Assembly (NCBI RefSeq): GCF_963921235.1
Contig: NC_086097.1
Span: 68,078,001 to 68,142,000, forward strand
Length of the DNA: 64,000 nucleotides
From: Mobula hypostoma
Lineage: Eukaryota
Direction: 5' to 3'
Made by a program: the position numbers and the translations under genes. Below are positions 7,375 through 62,292 of the stretch, one piece after another. Under the pieces are notes generated by a model. That model was not told the origin of the DNA, searched no databases, and saw nothing but the letters and a program-made list of their open reading frames with translations. Position 1 is the first letter of the stretch. Every line of letters starts with the position of its first letter.

Positions 7375-9217
7375 CATAAGACATAGAAGAATTAGGCCAT
7401 TCAGCACATCAAGTCTGCTCCACCATTCCATCACAGCTGATCCTGGAACCCCTCGAACCCATACACCTGCCTTCACGCCATAATCCTTTGATGCCCTGAT
7501 TGATCAGGATACACTCAACTTCGGCCTCAAATATACCCATGGACAGCCTCCAGTGCAGTCTGTGGCAGAGCACTCTGGCTAAAAAAAAATCTCCTTACCT
7601 CTGTTCTAAAGGGTCGTCCCTTAATTTTGAGGGTGTGCCCTCTAGTTCTGGATAAGCCCACCACAGGAAACATCCTCTCCACATCCAGCTTCTCTACTTC
7701 TTTGAATATTGGGTAGGTTTCAATAAAAATCCCCCACAATGTTCTAAATTCCAGTGAGTACAGGCCCAAAGCTGCCAAACGCCCCTCATGTTAACCCCTT
7801 CATTCCCAGAATCATCCTCGTGAACCTCCTCTGACTTTCTCCGTTGACAACATATCCTTTCTGAGATATGGGGCCCAAAACCCTTGACAATACTCTAAGT
7901 GTGGACTGACTAGTGTCTTATATAGGCTCAGCATTATCTCCTTGTTTTTATATTCTATTCCCTTTGAAATAAATGCCAACATTGCATTTGCCTTCTTGAC
8001 TACAAACTCAACCTGTAAATTAATCTCCTGGGAGTCTTGAACAAGGACTCCCAAGTCTCTCTGCACCTCTGATGTTTGAACCTTCTCCTTATTTAGATAA
8101 TAGTCTGCACTATTGTTCCTTTATCAAAATGTATTATCATACATTTCCCAACACTACATTCCATCTGCCAGCTTTTAGCCCATTCTTCCAATTTGTCTAA
8201 GGCCTGCTGCAATTGTATTGTTTCCGCAGTACTACCTACCCCTCCACCTATCTTCATATCATCCACAAACTTTGCCACAAAGCCTTCGATTCCATTGTCT
8301 AAATCACTGACAAACAATGTGAAAAGCAGCAGTCCCAATACTGACCCCTGAGAAACACCACTAGTCAGTAGCAGCCAACCAGAAAATGCCCCTTTTATTC
8401 CCATTCGCTGCCTCCTGCCTGTCAGCCATTCCGCTATCTATGACAGTGTCTTTCCTGTAACACCATAGGATTTTATCTTGTTAACCAGCCTCATGTGTGG
8501 CACCTTATTAAACGCCTTCTGAAAATCCAAATAAATAACATCCACTGTCTCTCCTTTGTCCACCCTGCTTGTAATTTTCTCAAAGAACTCTAACAGATTG
8601 GCCAGGTAAAATTTCTCTTTACAGAAATCATGTTGACTTTGACTTACTTTATCATTAGTCTCCAAGTACCCCGAAACTTCATCCTTAATAACAGGCTCCA
8701 AGACATTCCCAACCACATCGGTTAGGCTAACTGACCTATAATTTCCTTTCTTTTGTCTTCTTCACTTCTTAAAGAGTAGAGTGACATTTGTGATCTTCCA
8801 GTCCTCCGCGACCAGGCCAGGATCAAGTGATTCTTCAAAGATCATCCATTATCTCTTCAACAACCTCTCTCAGGCTCTGGAATATAGTCCATCTGGCTGA
8901 GGTGGCTTATTCATTTTAAGACCTTTGAGTTTTCCCTTTGTAATAGCAATGGCTCTCACTCCTGCTTCCTGACATTCACAGACCGCTGGCACACTGCTAA
9001 TGTCTTCCACAGTGAGGACAGATGCTAAGTACCCATTTAGTTCATCTGCCATTTCTTTGTCCCCCATTACTACATCACCAGCTTCTTTTTCCAGAGGTTT
9101 AATATCAATTCTCACCTCCCTTTTACCCTTTATATAACTGAAAAAACTTTTGGTATCCTGCTTTATATTATTTTCTGTCTAGATATTTCATCCTTTCCCT
9201 TCTTATAGCTTTTTTTT
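7375..9217 (-). mobile_element. CR1 LINE ORF2 (RT) and 3' UTR, frameshifted; continues at 10964-11345
   Basis: ORFs 8438..8716 (VDVIYLDFQKAFNKVPH), 8093..8404 (SGVSQGSVLG, KFVDDMKIGG), 7812..8066 (LYKTLVSPHLEYC) and 7527..7778 (RTRGHTLKI). Confidence 0.92.
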
Positions 9218-10963
9218 CAGAGCCACGGTCTGAAACTTTTCGATGATTTTAAGTTCCCTGGCCCCCACCACTTTATTTTCACCATGGATGTCCAGTCCCT
9301 ATATACTACCATCCCCCATCAGGAAGGTCTCAAAGCTCTCCGCTTCTTTTTGGATTCCAGACCTAACTAGTTCCCCTCTACCACCACTCTGCTCCGTCCA
9401 GCGACATTAGTCCTTACTCTTAATAATTTCTCCTTTGACTCCTCCCACTTCCTCCAAACTAAACGTGTAGCCATGGGCACCCATATGGGTCCCAGCTATG
9501 CCTGCCTTTTTGTTGGCTTTGTGGAACAATCTATGTTCCAAACCTATTCTGGTATCTGCCCCCACTTTTCCTTCGCTACATCGACGACTGCATTGGCGCT
9601 GCTTCCTGCACACATGCTGAGCTCGTTGACTTCATTAACTTTGCCTCCAACTTTCACCCTGCCCTCAAATTTACCTGTTCCATTTCTGACACCTCCCTCC
9701 CCTTTTTAGATCTTTCTGTCTCTGGAGACAGCTTATCTACTCCTGTCTGCTATAAGCCTACTGACTCTCACAGCTATCAAGACTGTTCCTCTTCTCACCC
9801 TGTCTCTTGCAAAAATGCCATCCCCTTCTCGCAGTTCCTCTGTCTCCGCCGCATCTGCTCTCAGGATGAGGCTTTTCATTCCAGGACGAAGGAGGTGTCC
9901 TCCTTTTTTAAAGAAAGGGGCTTCCCTTCCTCCACCAACAACTCTGCTCTCAAACGCATCTCCCCCATTTCACGCACATCTGTTCTCACTCCATCCTCCC
10001 GCCACCCCACTAGGAATAGGGTTCCCCTTGCCCTCACCTACCACCCTACCAGCCTCCGGGTCCAACATATAATGCTCCGTAACTTCCGTCACCTCCAACG
10101 GGATCCCACTACTAAGCACATCTTTCCCTCCCCTCCGTCCCCACCGATCTCTCTCCTGGCACTTATCCTTGTAAGCGGAACAAGTGCTACACATGCCCTT
10201 ACACTTCCTCCCTCACCACCATTCAGGGCCCCAGACAGTCCTTCCAGGTGAGGCGACACTTCACCTGTGAGTCGGCTGGGGTGATATACTGCGTCCGGTG
10301 CTCCCGATGCTGCCTTCTATATATTGGCGAGACCCGACATAGACTGGGAGATCATTTCGCTGAACACCTACGCTCTTTCCGCCAGAGAAAGCAGGATCTC
10401 CCAGTGGCCACACATTTTAATTCCACGTCCCATTCCCATTCTGATATGTCTATCCACAGCCTCTTCTACTGTAAAGATGAAGCCACACTCAGGTTGGAGG
10501 AACAAAACCTTATATTCCGTCTGGGTAGCCTCCAACCTGATGGCATGAACATTGACTTCTCAAACTTCCGCTATGCCCCACCTCCCCCTCGTACTCCATC
10601 TGTTATTTATTTATTTATATACACACATTCTTTTTCTCTCTCTCCTTTTTCTCCCTCTGTCCCTCTCACTATACCCCTTGCCCATCCTCTGGGCTTCCCC
10701 CCTTCCCCTTTTCTTTCTCCCTAGGCCTCCTGTCCCATGATCCTCTCATATCCCTTTTGCCAATCAACTGTCCAGCTCTTGGCTCCATCCCTCCCCCTCC
10801 TGTCTTCTTCTATCATTTCGGATCTCCCCCTCTCCCTCTCAAATCTCTTACTAGCTCTTCTTTCAGTTAGTCCTGATGAAGGGTCTCGGCCCGAAACGTC
10901 TACTGTACCTCTTCCTAGAGATGCTGCCTGGCTTGCTGCGTTCACCAGCAACTTTTATGTGTG
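9218..10963 (+). mobile_element. 5'-truncated Penelope-like element (RT, Cys linker, GIY-YIG, pseudo-LTR), probably Neptune-type, with stops and frameshifts
   Basis: MDVQSLYTTIPHQEGL, AMGTHMGPSYACLFVGFVE, FLRYIDD (about 9570), linker PCKRNKCYTCP (about 10170), and GIY-YIG VIYCVRCSRCCLLYIGET..RLGDHFAEH. Inserted into CR1 at an approximate tagctt(T)n duplication. Confidence 0.93.
10869..10904 (+). ncRNA. Minimal type I hammerhead ribozyme motif in the Penelope pseudo-LTR
   Basis: agtc-CTGATGA-a-GGGT(ctcg)GCCC-GAAA-C-GTC^tact. Catalytic boxes, 4-bp stem II, palindromic ACGT stem III and a GUC triplet. Other copies have gact, which closes stem I. Confidence 0.8.
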
Positions 10964-11345
10964 TAGCTTCTTTTTTTAGTTGCCTTTTGTTGGATTTTAA
11001 ATGCTTCCCAGTCATCCAACTTCCACTCACTTTTGTTACCTTATACGACCTTTCCTTGTCTTTTATGCAGTCCTTAACTTCCTTTCTCAACCTACCCCCG
11101 CCAGTTGAGAACTTCTCCCTCGGTGGGACATCATAAGCGGCGGGATAGTTTACTATTTGCAGAAACTTCAGCCATCTCTGCTCTGCCGTCATCCCCTCCA
11201 GTAACCCCCCTCCAATCCACCTGGGCAAGGTGCTCTCTTGTGCCTCTGTAATTCCCTTTATTCCATTGCGACATAGATACATGTGTGTTATGCTTCTCCC
11301 TTTCAAATTGCAGTATGAATTTAATTATATTATGATCACTGCTTG
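10964..11345 (-). mobile_element. CR1 ORF2 upstream continuation
   Basis: Minus ORF 10863..11306 (AEQRWLKFLQIV..KEVKDCIKDKERSYK) continues the 7375-9217 element across the Penelope insertion. Confidence 0.8.
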
Positions 11346-23009: not shown

Positions 23010-23191
23010 CAAACAAGGGAAAATCTGCAAACGCTGAAAATCCAAGCAACACACACAAAATGCTGAAGGAATCCAGCAGTTCAGGCAACATCTATTGAAA
23101 AGAGTAAACAATTGATGTTTTGGGCTGTTTACTCTTTTCCATAGATGCTGCCTGACCTGCTGAGTTCTTCCAGCATTTTGTGTGTGTTGCT
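23010..23191. mobile_element. Fold-back Penelope pLTR-only insertion
   Basis: Inverted arms cacacacaaaatgctg...aagagtaaaca and tgtttactctt...cagcattttgtgtgtg. TSD agcgttaaagactta (22995-23009) and agcgttatagactta (23192-23206). Confidence 0.85.
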
Positions 23192-27639: not shown

Positions 27640-28815
27640 ACCTGGGCCTCTGTACTTCCCTCTACAATTAGAACCTCCACTTATTGGGAGACCACAGTCA
27701 GTGCAGATCAGTAAAAATATATCCTCCTTACTGACAGTCAACACAGGCACACCTCAAGGACTCATGCTTAGCCCACTGCTCTACCCTATCTGCTCTCATG
27801 GCTGTGTGGCAAAGTACAGCTCAAATCTCATGGTGATGAAGAGGCACACAGGAGTGAGATAGATGGGCTAGCTGAGTGACATTGCAACAATAAACTCACT
27901 CAGCATCAGCAAGACTAAAGAAATGATCGTAGACTTCAGGACAGGGAAGTTGGGAGAACATACACTAGTTCGCCTAGAGGGATCAGTGCCAAAAAGGCTG
28001 AACAGCTTTAAGTTCTTGGGCATCAATATTTCAGAAGGTCTATACTGGGCTCAATACCATCATGACGCAATCATGAAGAAGACATGCCAACAGACCTGCT
28101 TTGTTAGGGATCTGAGGGGATTCAGTCTGTCACCAAAGACTCTTAAAAATTTCTATAGCTGTGTCGTGGAGATCATTGTGACTAGTTGCATCACAGTCTG
28201 TCATGGAGCTTCCAGTGCACGAGATTATAAGAAGATGCAGAAGATTGTAGACTCAGCCATCTCCAACATGGCTTTCCACACCATTGAGGAAGACATCAAG
28301 AGACAGTACCTCAAGATGGCCGCATCCATCACTAAGAACCCTCACCATTCGGGGCATTTCTTCTCCTCGTTACTACACTGGGGAGAAGCTGCATGCAACT
28401 ATTTAGAAAAGACTTCTTGATCTCTGCCATCAGACTCCTGAATTGTCCATGAAACTATGAATCTTATCTCATTATTCCTTACAATATACACAAAATGCTG
28501 GAGGAACACAGCAGGCCAGACTGCATCTATGGAAAAGAGTAAACAACAGTTGACATTTCAGGCTGAGACCATTCATCTCTGCCCAAAATGTTGACTGTTT
28601 ACTCTTTTCCATTGATGCTGCCTGACCTGCTGAGTTCCTCCAGCATTGTGTGTGTGTTGCTTGGATTTCCAGCATCTGCAGAATTATTTGTGTCTTTGCC
28701 CTATTTATTTATTGTTGTAATTTATACTAATATTTATGTCTTTGCATTGTACTGCTGATGCAAACCAAGAAATTTCATACTATCTAATTAAGTGGTAATA
28801 AATCTGATTCTGATT
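27640..28815 (+). mobile_element. Rex1/Babar LINE RT 3' half and UTR
   Basis: 'LTVNTGTPQGLMLSPLLY' and ORF 27923..28420 'MIVDFR..FKFLGINIS..LKNFYSCVVEIIVTSCITV'. Ends in a ctgattctgatt tail. Confidence 0.88.
28487..28698. mobile_element. Fold-back Penelope pLTR insertion inside the Rex1 3' UTR
   Basis: Short left arm tacacaaaatgctggagg..., long right arm ...ggatttccagcatctgcaga. Decayed hammerhead halves at the centre (28548-28596). Confidence 0.85.
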
Positions 28816-39580: not shown

Positions 39581-39769
39581 GATTCATCTTAAAAGTCCTG
39601 TTTATTTGAACACTTTTGCTGAAATAGCAAATTGGGATATGTTACAAGTACATTATATCTTTCAACACTGGAGTAAATTAGATGATATTGATTTGGCTGC
39701 TTATACACACTGTCTGAACAGTGCTCAAACTGCTAATATAAGAAAAAGAGAAAACAATTCCTGAAACCT

Positions 39770-39960
39770 CAATGATTTATCTTTTGGCTCCTCCCACTTT
39801 CTCCAAACTGAAGGTGTAACCGTGGGCATCTGCATGGGCCCCAGCCCGAAATGTTGACTGCTTATTCATTTCCATAGATGCTGCCTGACCTGCTGAGTTC
39901 CTCCAGCATTTTACATGTGTTACTCTGGATTTTCAGCATCAGCAGGGTCTCTTGTGTTTA
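39770..39960 (+). mobile_element. Internally deleted Penelope fragment (RT motif fused to pLTR)
   Basis: cccactttctccaaactgaaggtgtaaccgtgggcatctgcatgggccccag (compare 9443-9495) joined directly to cccgaaatgttgactg pLTR text. Confidence 0.75.
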
Positions 39961-44697: not shown

Positions 44698-47160
44698 TAC
44701 ACACACAAAATACTGGAGGAAGTTAGCAGGTGAGGCAGCATCTATGGAGAGGAATAAACAGTCAACATTTTAGGTCAAGACCCTTCATCAGGACTAGAAA
44801 GGAAGGGAAAAGAAGATAGGAGGAGGGGAAGGAGTATGAACTGGAAGCTGAGGAGGATGTTAGGTAAGTGTGGAGAGGGAGATGAAGTGAGAAGCTAGGA
44901 GGTGAGAGGTGGAAAAGGTAAAGTGCAGAACAAGGAATCTGATAGGAGCATGGAACGTAGGAGAAAAGGAAGGAGGAAGGGAACTAGAGGGAGGTGATAG
45001 GCAGATGAGGAGAAGGGAAGGGGTAACAGGGGAGCCAGAATGGGGAATGGAAAAAGAAAGAAGAGGGAGGGGGCAAAATTACTGGAAGTTAGAGAATTTG
45101 ATGTTCATATGTCAGGTTGGAGGTTAACCAGGTGGAATGAGGTGTTGCTCCACCAACCTGAGTGTGGTCTCATTCTGGCAGTACAGAAGGCCATGGACTG
45201 GCGTATCGGAATGGGAATGGGAAATCTAATTAAAATGGGTGACTATTTTAATTCTGCTTCCCATTCCTGCCTCTTGTGGATGGAGTGAAGTTGCTCGACA
45301 AAGCGGTCCCCCAATCTACGTCGGGTCTCACCAATGTAGAAGAGGCTACACTAGAAGAATCGGATACAGTAGATGACCCTGAACATGCCAGAGGGGTGAT
45401 CAGTGGGCAAGGGAGTCACAGAGAGAGCAATCCCTTTGGAAAGTAGACAGTGGAGGGGGAGTGAAGATGTGATGAGTGGTAGGATCTAGTTGAGGATGGC
45501 AGAACTTATGGAGAATGATGAGCTGGATTGAGAGGCTTATAGTGTGGAAAGTACAGTAATGACAAGGGGAGCTTGATCTCCATTATGATGGTGGGAAGAT
45601 TGGGTGAGGAAATGGAGAAAATGCAGATGAGGGCAGCATCAATGGTAAAGGAAGGGAAACTCTACTCTTTGAATAAGGAGGACATCTCAGATGTTCTGGA
45701 ATGGAAGATCTCATCCTGTGAACAGATGTAGTGGAGACAGAGGAACTGAGAAAAGGGAATAGCATTTTTACAAATGATAAGATGGGAAGAGATTTAGTCA
45801 AGATAGCTGTAAGAGTCAGTAGGTATATAAAAGACAGTCTATGTCCAGAAATGGACAGAGATATTGAGGTGTCAGAGATGGACCAAGTAAATTTGAGGGT
45901 GGTTGGAAGCTGGAGTCAAGGTTGATGAAATTGACAACCTCCGCATGGGTGCAGAAAGCAGCACTGATGCAGTCGTCAACGTAGCACAGAAAGAATTGAG
46001 ATGAGTTACCAAAGAAGGCTTGGAACATGGACTGTTCAAAGTTCAAATTGTATGTCACCACATACAACCCTGAGACTTATTTTCTTGAGGGCATACTCAG
46101 TAAATCAAGAACCATAATAGAATCAATGAAAGACCATACACAACAGGGAAGACAAGCGACCAATGTGCAATAGACAACCAACTATGTAAATACAAAAAGA
46201 AAAAAAGAAATAATAATAATAAAGAAATAAGCAATAATTATCAAGAACATGAGATGAAGTGTCCTTGAAAATGAGTCCATAGTTTGTGGGAACAGTTCAG
46301 AAATGGGGCAGGTGAAGATATTCCCACTGGTTCAAGAGCCTGATAGTTGAGGGGTAGTAACTGTTCCTGAACCTGGTGATGTGAGTCCTGAGGCTCCCAT
46401 GCTGCCTTCTTGATGGCATCAGTGAGACGAGAGCATGATCTGGTTGGTGGGGGTCTCTGCTGATGGATGAATATTGCTTTTCTGTGACAGCATTTAATGT
46501 AGATGTGCTCAATGGTGGGGTGGTTGGGGTCTCTGATAATGGATGCTGCTTTCCTGCAACTGCGCTCTGTGTAGATGTGCACAGTGGTGGGGAGGGCTTT
46601 ACCCATGATGGACTGCGCCATACCCACTACTTTTTGTAGGATTTTCCATTCAAGGGCATTGGTGGTTCCATACCTGGCTGTGATTCAAGCAGTTAATATA
46701 CTCTCCACCACACATCTATAGAAGTTTGTCAAAGTTTTAGATGTCATGCCATATCTGCAAGCTTCTAAGCAAGTAGAGGCACTGCTATGCTCTCTTCATA
46801 ATTGTATTTATGTGTAGGTCCTCCAAAATAATAACACTGAAGAATTTAAAGTTGCTGACCCTCTCCACCTCTCATCCCCTGATGAGGACTGGCTCATGGA
46901 GCTCCAGTTTCCTCCTCCTGAAGTCAACAATCAGCTTCTTGGTCTTGCTGACATTGAGAAAGAGGCAAGATGGTGCCAGAGAACCATGGCGACGCTCTGC
47001 AGGATGCTTACAAAACTTCTAAATAAACTTCTGCTTACTGTTTCATGAAGCCAATGAAAAGGCAAGCATAGCTGGGGCCCATGCAACTTCCCATGGCTAC
47101 ATTGTGAGTTTGGAGAAAGTGAAAGGAGCCAAAACAGAGGAAGGTGGTGGTGAAGGGAAC
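44698..47160 (-). mobile_element. Penelope-like element (RT to pLTR), decayed, split by a Rex1 insertion
   Basis: pLTR and hammerhead at 44759-44796. ORF 45816..46067 'FEQSMFQ..FLCYVDDCI'. RT 'AMG..MGPSYA' resumes at about 47050-47120. Confidence 0.85.
46038..46960 (-). mobile_element. Rex1/Babar 3' fragment nested in Penelope
   Basis: ORF 46297..46512 'LRTHITRFRNSYYPSTIRLLN'. Tail (aagttc) at the left. Confidence 0.85.
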
Positions 47161-47389: not shown

Positions 47390-48125
47390 TTTACCTCTCA
47401 GTCAAGACTCTTCATCTGGACTAAAAGATAAAAGGAAGATAGCCAGTAAATAAAAGATGGAGGGAATTGATGGAACGAGAGTGGAAGGTGATAGTTGGTA
47501 GGTCCAGGGAAGAGAGGAAATAGTAGCAGAAAATGGGACGAGATAGGGTAAGTGATACAATCTAATGGGAGAGGAAGGTTAAACATAGAATAAAGGAAGG
47601 GAGGTGAGGAGTAGTGGGGGAAGGAGTGTGTGTATGATGGGCAGATAGAATGGTTGGAAGAGTAGAAAAGTTATGGTGATGGGGGCCACATAGATCAGGA
47701 GGGAAGGGAAAAGGGAGTGGGAGGGGGATCAGATTTTGGAAGTTGGCATATTTGGTGATTATTCTGCCGAGTTGTAATCTGCCCAGGAGGAATACTAGGT
47801 GCTGTTTCTCAAGTTAGGAATACAACTATATTTAAAATTGGTTACCTTTCCTCTATTTCTTAGTCCAAATGAAGGGAAAGGTCTTATCCAAAATGTTGAC
47901 TGCCTAGTTCCCTCCATAGATACTGCTTGACCTGCTGAGTTCTACCAACGTTTTGCGTTTTGTTCAAAATTCCAGTGTCTGCACTTCAGGACTTGGTCCC
48001 AAAGAAGGATCTCAGCCCAAAACATCGACTGTTTATTCATTTCCATAGATGCTGCCTGACCTGCTGAGTTCCTCCAGCATTTTGTGTGTGTTGCTTTGGA
48101 TTTCCAGCATCTGCAGAGTTCCTCA
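47390..48125. mobile_element. Penelope pLTR cluster (one minus, two tandem plus copies)
   Basis: Decayed hammerhead cores at about 47400-47422 (minus), 47862-47902 (plus) and 47996-48031 (plus). Confidence 0.75.
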
Positions 48126-51100: not shown

Positions 51101-51253
51101 GTATCATGTTTTGCTACAATTAAACTACCAATTTTAAGTCATGTTCTATATATTTTCAAAGACAAAAAGTGTTAACACTGATCGTGCTATATTTCCAGCA
51201 AATGTTTGACATGTGTTTGGCAGTAAATTCTGCTGTCATTATTGAAATTAATA

Positions 51254-51819
51254 CACAATCGGTGGCCAATTTATTAGGCACCTCCTGTACCTAATAAAGA
51301 GGCCACTGAGTATACGTTGGTGACCTTCTGCTTCTGGAACTCATTCACTTCAAGGTTCGATGTTCTGTGCATTCAGAGATGCTCTTCTGCAAACCACTGT
51401 TGTAACACGTGGTTAGTTGAGATACTGTCACCTTCCTATCAGCTTGAACCAGTTTGGCCATTCTCCTCTGACCTTTCTCAACAACAAGGTCTTTTCACCC
51501 ACAGAACTGACACTCACTGGATGTCTTTTGTTCTTCACAGCATTCTCTGTAAACTCTAGTGACAGTTATGTGTGAAAGTCCCAGGAGATCAGCAGGCTCT
51601 GAGAAATTCAAACCACCCCCTCTGGCACCAACAATTATTTCACAAAGTCACTTGGATACATTTCTTCCCCATTCTGATGTCTGGCCTGAACAGCAACTGA
51701 ACCTCTTGACCACATCTGCATGCTTTTATACGTTGAGTTGCTGCCAAATGATTAACTAATTAGATATTTGTTTTAACAAGCAGGTATACCAGGCTACCTA
51801 ATAAAGTGGCCACTGAGTG
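51254..51819 (-). mobile_element. Internally deleted Tc1-family transposon retaining the N-terminal HTH region
   Basis: TIR (c)actcagtggccactttattagg at both ends, TA flank at 51820. Homologous to 58354-58882. Confidence 0.85.
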
Positions 51820-52554: not shown

Positions 52555-54345
52555 AGAAAGAGAATTAAGGAGAAGGTGCTTAAGGAGCTGAAAGGGCTGA
52601 AGGTAAATAAATCAGATGGTCTACATCCCAGAGCAGATGGACTACACCCCCGATTTCTGAAAGAGGTACCTGAAGAGATTTTGCAGGCAGTAAAAGTGAT
52701 CTTTCAAGCATCACTGGAGTCAGGGAGGTTCTCAGAGAACCGGAAAATTGCAAATATAACATCTCTATTTAAGACGGAGGGAGGCAAAGGCAGAAAATTA
52801 TAAGCCAGTTACCCTGACCTCAGCACTTAGCATGATTTTAAAGTCCATTAATGGTGAAATTTTGGAGTACATGGAACTACATGATAAAATAGGATAACGT
52901 CAGCATGGTCTCATTAAGGGGAGATTTGCTTGACAAATACGTTAGAATTCCTTGAGGAGATAACAAGCAGGTTAGTTAAAGAAATGTCAATGGGCATTAT
53001 GTCCTTGGATTTTCAGAAGCCCCTACAAGACTGCTGAACAAGATAAAAGTCCCTGGTGTTAGAGGCAAGCTCCTATCATGGATAGAAGATAGGCTGACTG
53101 ACTGAAGACAAGTGGGGATGAAAGGGTCCTTTTCAGGATGGCTGCCAGTGATTGACAGAGTTCTGCAGGGATTGGTGTTGGGACCATAGCTTTTCACTTT
53201 ATATATTAATAATCTGGATGAAAGAACTGATAGAATTCAGGCCAAGTTTGAGATGATACAAAGACAGGTGGATGGGCAGGTAATATTGTGGAGGCAGCAA
53301 ATCCGCAGAAGGACTTTGCCAAGTTGAGGAGCAGGCAAAGAAGTGGCAGATGGAATACAGTATAGGGAAGTCCAATCACAAAAGAGCGAAAATCTGCAGA
53401 GGCTGGAAATCCAAGTAACACGCACAAGATGCTGGAGGAACGAAGCTGGCCAGGCAGCATCTATGGAAAAGAATACAGTCGATGTTTCAAGCTGTGACCC
53501 TTAAGCAGGACTGCTGAAGGGTCTTGGCCCAAAACGTAGACTGTACCCTTTTCCATAGATGCTGCCTGGCCTGCTGAGTTCCTCTAGCATTTTGTGTGTG
53601 TTACCAGTATAGGGAAATGTAAGTTTATGCACTTTGGTTGGAAGAATAAAGATGTAGACTATTTTGTAATTTGAGAAATAATTCAGAAATTGGAGGTGCA
53701 AAGGGGGGAGTCAAAACTTAGGATTCCCCCAAGGTTAACTTACAGTTGAGGAAGGTAAATGCTTCATTTCATTAGTATTTATTTCGATATGTATTGCAGA
53801 AGTTTTATAAGGCATTTGTATGACTGGATTTGGAATGTTGTGAGAAATTTTGGTTCCTCATCTGGGGAAGGATGTACTGGCCTTGCAGAGGGTCCGGAGG
53901 TGGTTTACTTAGAATGGCCCCAAGAATGAACGGTTAAGAACAATGCGTGTTTGATGGCTCCCGGCCTACACTTGATGGAGTTCAGAAGGATGGCTGGAAA
54001 TTTCATTGAAACCTATGGCATATGAAAGCTCTGAGTAGAGTGGGCATGGGGAGAATGTTTCCATTAGTAGGGAAAACTTTTCCATTAGGATCAAAGGACA
54101 CAGTCTCAGAATAAAGGGATGTCCCTTTAGAACAGAAACAAGGAGGAATTTTTTCACCTGGAGGATGGTGAATCTGTTGAACTCATTGCCACAGAGGGTG
54201 GTGGAGTTCAATTTATTGAGTGTATTTTAGGCAGAGACTGATAGGTTCTTCATTGGTAAGAGAGTTAAGGATTACAGGGACAGTACAGGAAAATGGGGTT
54301 GAGGAAGCAAAATCCTATATCTACTGTAAATTCTTATGGTCTAAG
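52555..54345 (+). mobile_element. CR1 ORF2 RT region and 3' UTR, decayed
   Basis: ORF 52576..52803 'LKGLKVNKSDGLHPR..LKEV', then ttggattttcagaagccc (LDFQK), then the CR1 UTR. Confidence 0.85.
53370..53604. mobile_element. Fold-back Penelope pLTR insertion in CR1
   Basis: Inverted arms with two opposed decayed hammerheads (53476-53545). Exact 12-bp TSD cagtatagggaa (53358-69 and 53605-16). Confidence 0.88.
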
Positions 54346-61815: not shown

Positions 61816-62110
61816 TTATCACAAACAAGAGAAAATCTGCAGATGCTGGAAATCTAAGTGAGACACACAAAATGCTGGAGCAACTCAGCAGGCCAGACAG
61901 CATCTATGGAAAAAAGTAAAGTCGATGATTTAGACTGTCTCCCTTCAGCAAGACTGGAGAAAAATAAAATGATTTAAAAAAAAGATGAGGAGTACTCCTC
62001 ATCTTTTTCCCTCCAGTCCTGGTGAAGGGTCTCAGCCCTAAACATCAACTTTACTCTTTTCCATAGATGCTACCTGGCCTGCTGAGTTCCTCCAGTATTT
62101 TGTGTGTGTT
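61816..62110. mobile_element. Fold-back Penelope pLTR insertion in CR1
   Basis: Long inverted arms centred on aaagatgaggagtactcctcatcttt. Exact 10-bp TSD gcttgaatat (61806-15 and 62111-20). Confidence 0.9.
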
Positions 62111-62292
62111 GCTTGAATATGCTCCTTTGGCTGTCATACTATAGGAAGGACATGATGGCACTGCCAAGGTTGCAAAGGAGAATCATTAGGACATTGTTTT
62201 GGATAGAGATTTCATTTAGGAGAAAAGACTCAATTATCAATGGGCTTATTTTCCATGAAGCACAGAGATTTAGGGGGGGCCTGAATGAAGTA

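Follow-up and report, generated by a model that had tools for sequence, protein, structure and literature searches.

Minimal hammerhead ribozymes (min-HHRs) have been described in the pseudo-LTRs of metazoan Penelope-like elements (PLEs), including Xena, Poseidon and Neptune of fish, and were reported to be inactive as monomers and to show low activity as dimers (Cervera and De la Pena 2014, PMC4209133). In PAc, a Poseidon element of Anolis carolinensis, the motif was cut only in the presence of the element protein (Frangieh et al. 2024, PMC11167929). Animal non-LTR retrozymes carry a type I motif that comes from PLE pseudo-LTRs, and one chondrichthyan genome is among their reported hosts (bioRxiv 10.64898/2026.07.22.740005).

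The motif analyzed here lies at positions 10869-10904 of the window, by which we mean the whole 64-kb stretch of DNA under study. Its initial identification as the minimal type I hammerhead of a PLE agrees with all features listed for the published min-HHRs: type I, no helix III, a palindromic 15.2-16.2 segment, an extra base between positions 9 and 10.1, a G10.1-C11.1 pair, a helix I of 4-5 bp, mostly solitary copies in truncated elements, and close pairs on opposite strands (PMC4209133). With the small PLE-associated hammerheads of Lunse, Weinberg and Breaker (2016) it shares the short palindromic stem III and the dimer model (PMC6765202), and with PAc the placement of stems I and II within the terminal repeat, copies that end past the cut site, and an AT-rich insertion site (PMC11167929). 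On the other hand, its stem II has 4 bp, in contrast to 7-8 bp in the Schistosoma motifs, and it differs from the published min-HHRs in its cartilaginous-fish host and in a mismatch at position 1.1 that is private to the window copy (PMC4209133). Whereas in PAc, a Poseidon element, the ORF starts inside stem II (PMC11167929), here the linker is of the Neptune type and the ATG at 10876-78 is lost in most copies; unlike the non-LTR retrozymes, which form non-coding tandem arrays, the window copy is solitary and joined to RT and endonuclease coding sequence. One of the two supplement files of PMC4209133 makes no mention of shark, Callorhinchus or Leucoraja, and the literature searched, with most subscription journals and Repbase outside its scope, yielded no paper on this Neptune family of sharks and rays. 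Hammerheads in PLE terminal repeats have been known since 2014, with thousands of copies per genome, and the locus adds little as a discovery; it adds another family to the published PLE hammerheads, represented by a dead copy. We consider it probable, at roughly four chances in five, that the motif is a minimal type I hammerhead in the terminal region of a Neptune-type retroelement, and that in this dead copy its own site is most likely uncut.

The element and its terminal motif

The host element has the layout of EN+ PLEs, in which a PLE-type RT is followed by a C-terminal GIY-YIG endonuclease (Table 1). A tblastn comparison extends the ORF over 9221-10586, with 61-75% identity to shark proteins (62-75% to P0001/P0002 across the RT), and among the 21 matches from 1468 candidates in a protein search the top ones come from Rhincodon, Chiloscyllium and Stegostoma (55-65% identity), which points to a cartilaginous fish as host. 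The copy begins within the RT, just upstream of the MDV motif, and its ORF is broken by an in-frame stop (9368-70), by a frameshift near 9560-68, and by a second frameshift with the loss of about 21 codons at 10125. The location of the motif downstream of a GIY-YIG stretch, claimed in the preliminary description, is borne out: Pfam PF01541 matches with an E value of 0.0058 and 17.3 bits, below its curated cut-off of 22.6, and the hammerhead sits about 300 nt downstream of the end of that domain. The zinc-finger-like motif of the linker reads CKRNKCYTC, which fits the Neptune pattern C-x2-5-C-x2-C; such a linker between RT and endonuclease is a mark of Neptune and Nematis (PMC8557442). The element is therefore best described as Neptune-type, a label that rests on this linker motif, which Nematis shares. 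In the zebra shark the protein translates through its own motif at the equivalent place (LMKGLRPKRQ, compared with LMKGLGPKRL in the window copy).

The term "pseudo-LTR", used in the same description, is appropriate for the motif's surroundings by position but not in the sense of a paired repeat: the 3' terminal repeat alone is present, and no upstream terminal repeat of the element was found in the window. PLE copies are mostly truncated and retain a single terminal repeat (PMC8557442), and in one relative (locus L057) both terminal repeats are present, 3152 nt apart. At the 3' end, the depth of family contigs drops more than 10-fold at 10970. The element interrupts the remnant of an older LINE, which we take to be CR1-like, and a search of the window for a second copy of the interrupted LINE stretch, which would provide the empty site for the putative target-site duplication, found none.

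On the forward strand, 10869-10904 reads AGTC CTGATGA A GGGT CTCG GCCC GAAA C GTC TACT. The catalytic boxes, the 4-bp stem II, the GUC triplet, the extra A and the palindromic ACGT that had been claimed for it can all be read in this sequence. Stem II of the window copy comprises the pairs G-C, G-C, G-C and U-G (4 bp), while in stem I three of the four pairs are formed and 1.1-2.1 is broken. An ATG is present at 10876-78, inside the first catalytic box. From the hammerhead numbering, the cut is predicted to fall 3' of C17 (10900).

Table 1. Coordinates of the Penelope-like element, its hammerhead motif and the flanking features, as positions in the window
Feature	Positions	Strand	Remarks
Older LINE RT remnant, interrupted by the element	7812-9178	-	Pfam RVT_1 in two minus-strand frames
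Likely target-site duplication, left	9206-9217	+	TAGC then T8; inferred
Penelope-like element, 5'-truncated, ORF broken	9221-10963	+	Neptune-type
Penelope-like reverse transcriptase, 5'-truncated	9221-10125	+	MDV at 9284, YIDD at 9577-88, thumb region
Linker and GIY-YIG endonuclease	10125-10575	+	C-x4-C-x2-C at 10170-96; entered via frameshift
Pyrimidine-rich 3' untranslated stretch, endonuclease to hammerhead	10576-10868	+
Stem I, 5' arm AGTC	10869-10872	+	C10872 = position 2.1
Catalytic box CTGATGA	10873-10879	+	C3-U4-G5-A6-N7-G8-A9
Extra A between A9 and 10.1	10880	+
Stem II, GGGT (10881-84)/GCCC (10889-92), loop CTCG	10881-10892	+	G10.1-C11.1 closing pair
Catalytic box GAAA	10893-10896	+	G12-A13-A14 and A15.1
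Palindromic ACGT replacing stem III	10896-10899	+	A15.1-U16.1; pairing possible only with a second copy
GUC triplet	10898-10900	+	G 10898, T 10899, C17 = 10900; preceded by C 10897
Stem I, 3' arm TACT	10901-10904	+	T10901 breaks pair 1.1-2.1; private to the window copy
Conserved 3' tail past the cut site	10905-10963	+	repeat end near 10963-10969
Likely target-site duplication, right	10964-10977	+	one additional C; inferred

Conservation among relatives and within the family

When both strands of the window were scanned with a strict descriptor, which demands the core, a stem II of 4 bp, a palindrome at 15/16 and at least three of four stem I pairs, the sole match was that at 10869-10904; 300 dinucleotide shuffles of the window gave a mean of 0.01 matches, with any match at all in 3 of the 300. 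It could be argued that repeat DNA merely happens to look like a hammerhead here, as the Rfam hammerhead families have no match in the window or in 10800-10980 up to an E value of 10, and a loose core pattern matches nine times in the window. Rfam hammerhead models expect a closed helix III. The chance interpretation is nevertheless refuted by the shuffles, by the descriptor matches at a fixed place after the endonuclease in related loci and by the covarying stems of these relatives, and we regard it as scarcely credible. A search of viral contigs with the exact motif pattern returned no match.

The relatives are the best 80 of 469 confirmed from metagenome contigs; 34 of these 80 include the end of the endonuclease, and 27 of the 34 continue for at least 300 nt beyond it. 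In 11 of these 27 loci a minimal hammerhead is found on the same strand, 87-301 nt after the endonuclease, compared with 7 of 5400 shuffled segments and none of the 27 opposite strands. The remaining 16 loci, in which there is no strict match, comprise ten with damaged look-alikes (one of them unconvincing) and six with nothing. Three descriptor matches in the related loci, with U3-A8 and long loops, were excluded as likely chance, and 21 with C3-G8 were counted; the extra A after A9 occurs in all 21, though it is optional in the descriptor, and the palindromic 15/16 segment in 17. Two loci of a related family have intact stems and G or A at the C17 position (L049 near 6312 and L051 near 2857; GTG, GTA), where G is normally not cut.

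The predicted stem covariation across relatives was seen both in a 12-row alignment and in a search that required no pairing. In the alignment, whose rows were picked by the pairing descriptor and half of which (6/12) come from one family, seven of the nine pairs vary on both sides, and the window copy is the sole row that breaks 1.1-2.1. The core-only search gave 27 matches in the 80 loci (293,371 nt; again the best 80 of 469), with a stem II of 3-4 bp in 26 of them and the 1.1-2.1 pair in 24. The 17 distinct pairs of stem I arms have on average 2.94 of 4 positions paired, as opposed to 1.54 after permutation (0/10000). The covariation shows that the motif is kept under selection across related elements.

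Variation within the family was assessed with assembled contigs of 4 of 23 listed sequencing runs, placed on 10760-11040 at 80% likeness. The number of fitting contigs, from 6,081 to 73,802 per run, indicates a very abundant repeat and is not a copy number. At 10901, G accounts for 82, 83, 79 and 86% of depth in the four runs and A, the product of CpG decay, for 13-20%, so that G and A together reach 98.9-99.5%. This confirms the reported change of the stem I arm from gact to tact: T10901 is private to the window copy, and with G at this position the family has the 4-5 bp of helix I, of which the window copy retains 3/4. At N7 the family has C in 61-82% of depth, and this base abolishes the ATG at 10876-78. 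At position 11.1 (10892), T makes up 39, 37, 18 and 52% of depth, against 12, 12, 19 and 10% for the change at its CpG partner base; the U is thus found at 37-39% in the DNA runs X1 and X5 and at 52% in X15, an RNA run by our guess, while X9 has no excess. Where present, the excess of U is three- to fivefold over the change at the CpG partner, as if stem II were closed by G-U in a sub-lineage of the family. The literature examined gives no cleavage rate for G-U at 10.1-11.1.

Above the CpG background the motif varies only at N7 and 11.1, and in both cases the fold is retained; two variable positions do not suffice as proof of selection, and the CpG at 10819-20, outside the motif, is similarly asymmetric. 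Preferential conservation of core bases among the copies, whose absence had been set in advance as a refutation, was not seen. Decay amounts to 12.5% at G12, 13.0% at 15.2, 14.8% at 16.2 and 9.3% at C17, with 12.2-13.4% at an outside CpG; over all core CpGs it ranges from 9 to 17%, comparable with the 12-13% at 10939-40, a CpG that is not part of the motif. This is expected of dead copies, yet it offers no support for the hammerhead. Loose contig ends accumulate at 10869 and at 10905-06, and contigs of an older subfamily begin to fit at 10869; a subfamily other than that of the window copy matches just the block 10869-10905 without gaps, with different sequence on both sides, although the tail after 10919 is kept too. 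A block shared amid differing flanks fits selection on the motif in the parent elements. The depth of X15, about twice as high at 10920-49 as at 10880-909 (about 1.2 times in the other runs), was set aside as evidence, because contig depth cannot rank the parts of a repeat and because this is where subfamilies that carry an indel at 10906 come in.

Proposed cleavage and alternative roles of the fold

In active parent elements, tandem copies would place two motifs on one transcript, the ACGU palindromes of the two motifs could pair with each other to form stem III, and stem I would form between the arms. One copy would then contribute the core and 5' arm and the other the cut site, with a slow and probably protein-assisted cut after GUC, as in the published relatives. 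The window copy is a solitary, 5'-truncated and dead insertion, in which T in place of G at 1.1, a change private to it, disrupts the pair beside the scissile bond; its own site is most likely uncut, considering that a 1.1-2.1 mismatch slows cleavage at least 500-fold in trans-acting hammerheads (PMC3138052). The intact core and 5' arm could in principle cut the site of a partner, which would make the copy a poor substrate but a potential enzyme half of a dimer, but there is no intact neighbour. The inserted DNA extends 63 nt beyond the cut site; as the inserted copy spans this site, its RNA template was either uncut or rejoined, and cutting therefore does not precede every insertion.

It is tempting to go further and assume that the family efficiently processes its own RNA in vivo, from tandem transcripts via unit-length molecules to circles, and that the present copy is near-intact and still cleaves. 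All core bases of the copy are intact, the stems covary across relatives, such self-processing is the model put forward in PMC4209133, and the family is present in contigs of the one run guessed to be RNA. However, "near-intact", as the preliminary description put it, overstates the condition of a copy that has the 1.1-2.1 mismatch, a stop and two frameshifts in its ORF, and no intact partner motif on the same strand within the window, the nearest same-strand module (12891) being broken in both core and palindrome. Together with the insertion running across the cut site, and with RNA-seq of Anolis that lacks ends at the cut site (PMC11167929), this makes the stronger reading as a whole very unlikely.

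The fold could alternatively serve as a handle for dimerization or protein binding beside the start site of reverse transcription, its catalysis being vestigial or tuned down in this lineage. That copies run through the uncut site into a further 60-90 nt of conserved tail would suit such a role, as would the G10.1-U11.1 sub-lineage, which stands at 37-39% of depth in the two DNA runs over a CpG background of about 12%; moreover, catalytic mutants of the Anolis element insert normally (PMC11167929) and Naiad elements spread without the motif (PMC8557442). However, a mere handle needs none of C3, G5, G8, G12 or a cuttable triplet, all of which are kept in distant relatives, variants of G8 and G12 never rise above the CpG background, and the Anolis motif does cut when the protein is present (PMC11167929). 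We find this possibility unlikely, and prefer to regard the motif as a minimal hammerhead that would be catalytic in the parent elements and is situated here in a dead copy.

Folding predictions bear on a variant of these ideas. The double-hammerhead fold has a predicted energy of -9.3 kcal/mol compared with a minimum of -26.5 kcal/mol, and natural relatives lie 7-17 kcal/mol above their own minima; folding energies were rejected as a criterion of activity, as they fail to tell active motifs from inactive ones. In the predicted monomer minimum the core is buried in a GAUG/CGUC helix, and C at N7, the family majority and the base found in 15 of the 27 matches in relatives, makes GACG fully complementary to CGUC (10875-10878/10897-10900). 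In this model the GACG/CGUC helix is a possible built-in off state. One may speculate, though we doubt it, that a large and possibly the most transcribed sub-lineage has exchanged the highly conserved G10.1-C11.1 pair for G-U, and that this together with C at N7 has tuned the ribozyme into a protein-gated off switch, by which full-length RNA is spared for reverse transcription and cut only later. If this were true, the very many dated copies would constitute a natural test of hammerhead activity against the spread of the element. In any case the family, abundant in a vertebrate, varies naturally at 11.1 and N7, and the mismatch at 1.1 provides a control made by nature.

Other hammerhead modules in the window

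Twenty places in the window, including the copy at 10869-10904, match a profile of the 3' module, and the reversed window yields none. The remaining 19 modules are decayed or partial, mostly through CpG changes in CGAAACGTCGAC, and none of them matches the strict descriptor. Eight of the 19 make up four head-to-head pairs of a hammerhead plus tail (23046-23189, 28483-28659, 53416-53603 and 61860-62111), and in three of the four the junction falls within the motif or at its edge, with 4-12 bases shared. Inverted truncated copies are known for PLEs, and these junctions may be marks of reverse transcription stalling at the motif. Truncation at the cut site itself was considered and dismissed: of the eight arms in these pairs, one begins no more than a few bases away from that position, which is no signal.

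A second, older and broken PLE occupies 44698-47133 on the reverse strand, with an insertion between 46037 and 47038; towards its end at 44698 it has the same order of endonuclease, pyrimidine-rich stretch and hammerhead, the latter decayed through CpG changes. Other arrangements include a short RT fragment fused straight to a hammerhead module (39768-39922), which is an internal-deletion derivative; a direct tandem of two decayed modules spaced by about 135 nt (47858-48096), arranged as in a non-LTR retrozyme or a partial tandem; and an endonuclease remnant on the reverse strand (1254-1755) next to a module on the forward strand (1949-2054), in inverted arrangement. In older copies of the window, the subfamily tail after the module (e.g. 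48094-48118) runs on as TTGGATTTCCAGCATCTGCAG. This tail resembles splice acceptors, with a pyrimidine tract followed by AG, and the copy at 10869-10904 stops short of it. Finally, 51251-51317 is a long inverted repeat that gives weak scores with microRNA models on both strands, far under the cut-off, and is possibly a small inverted-repeat transposon.
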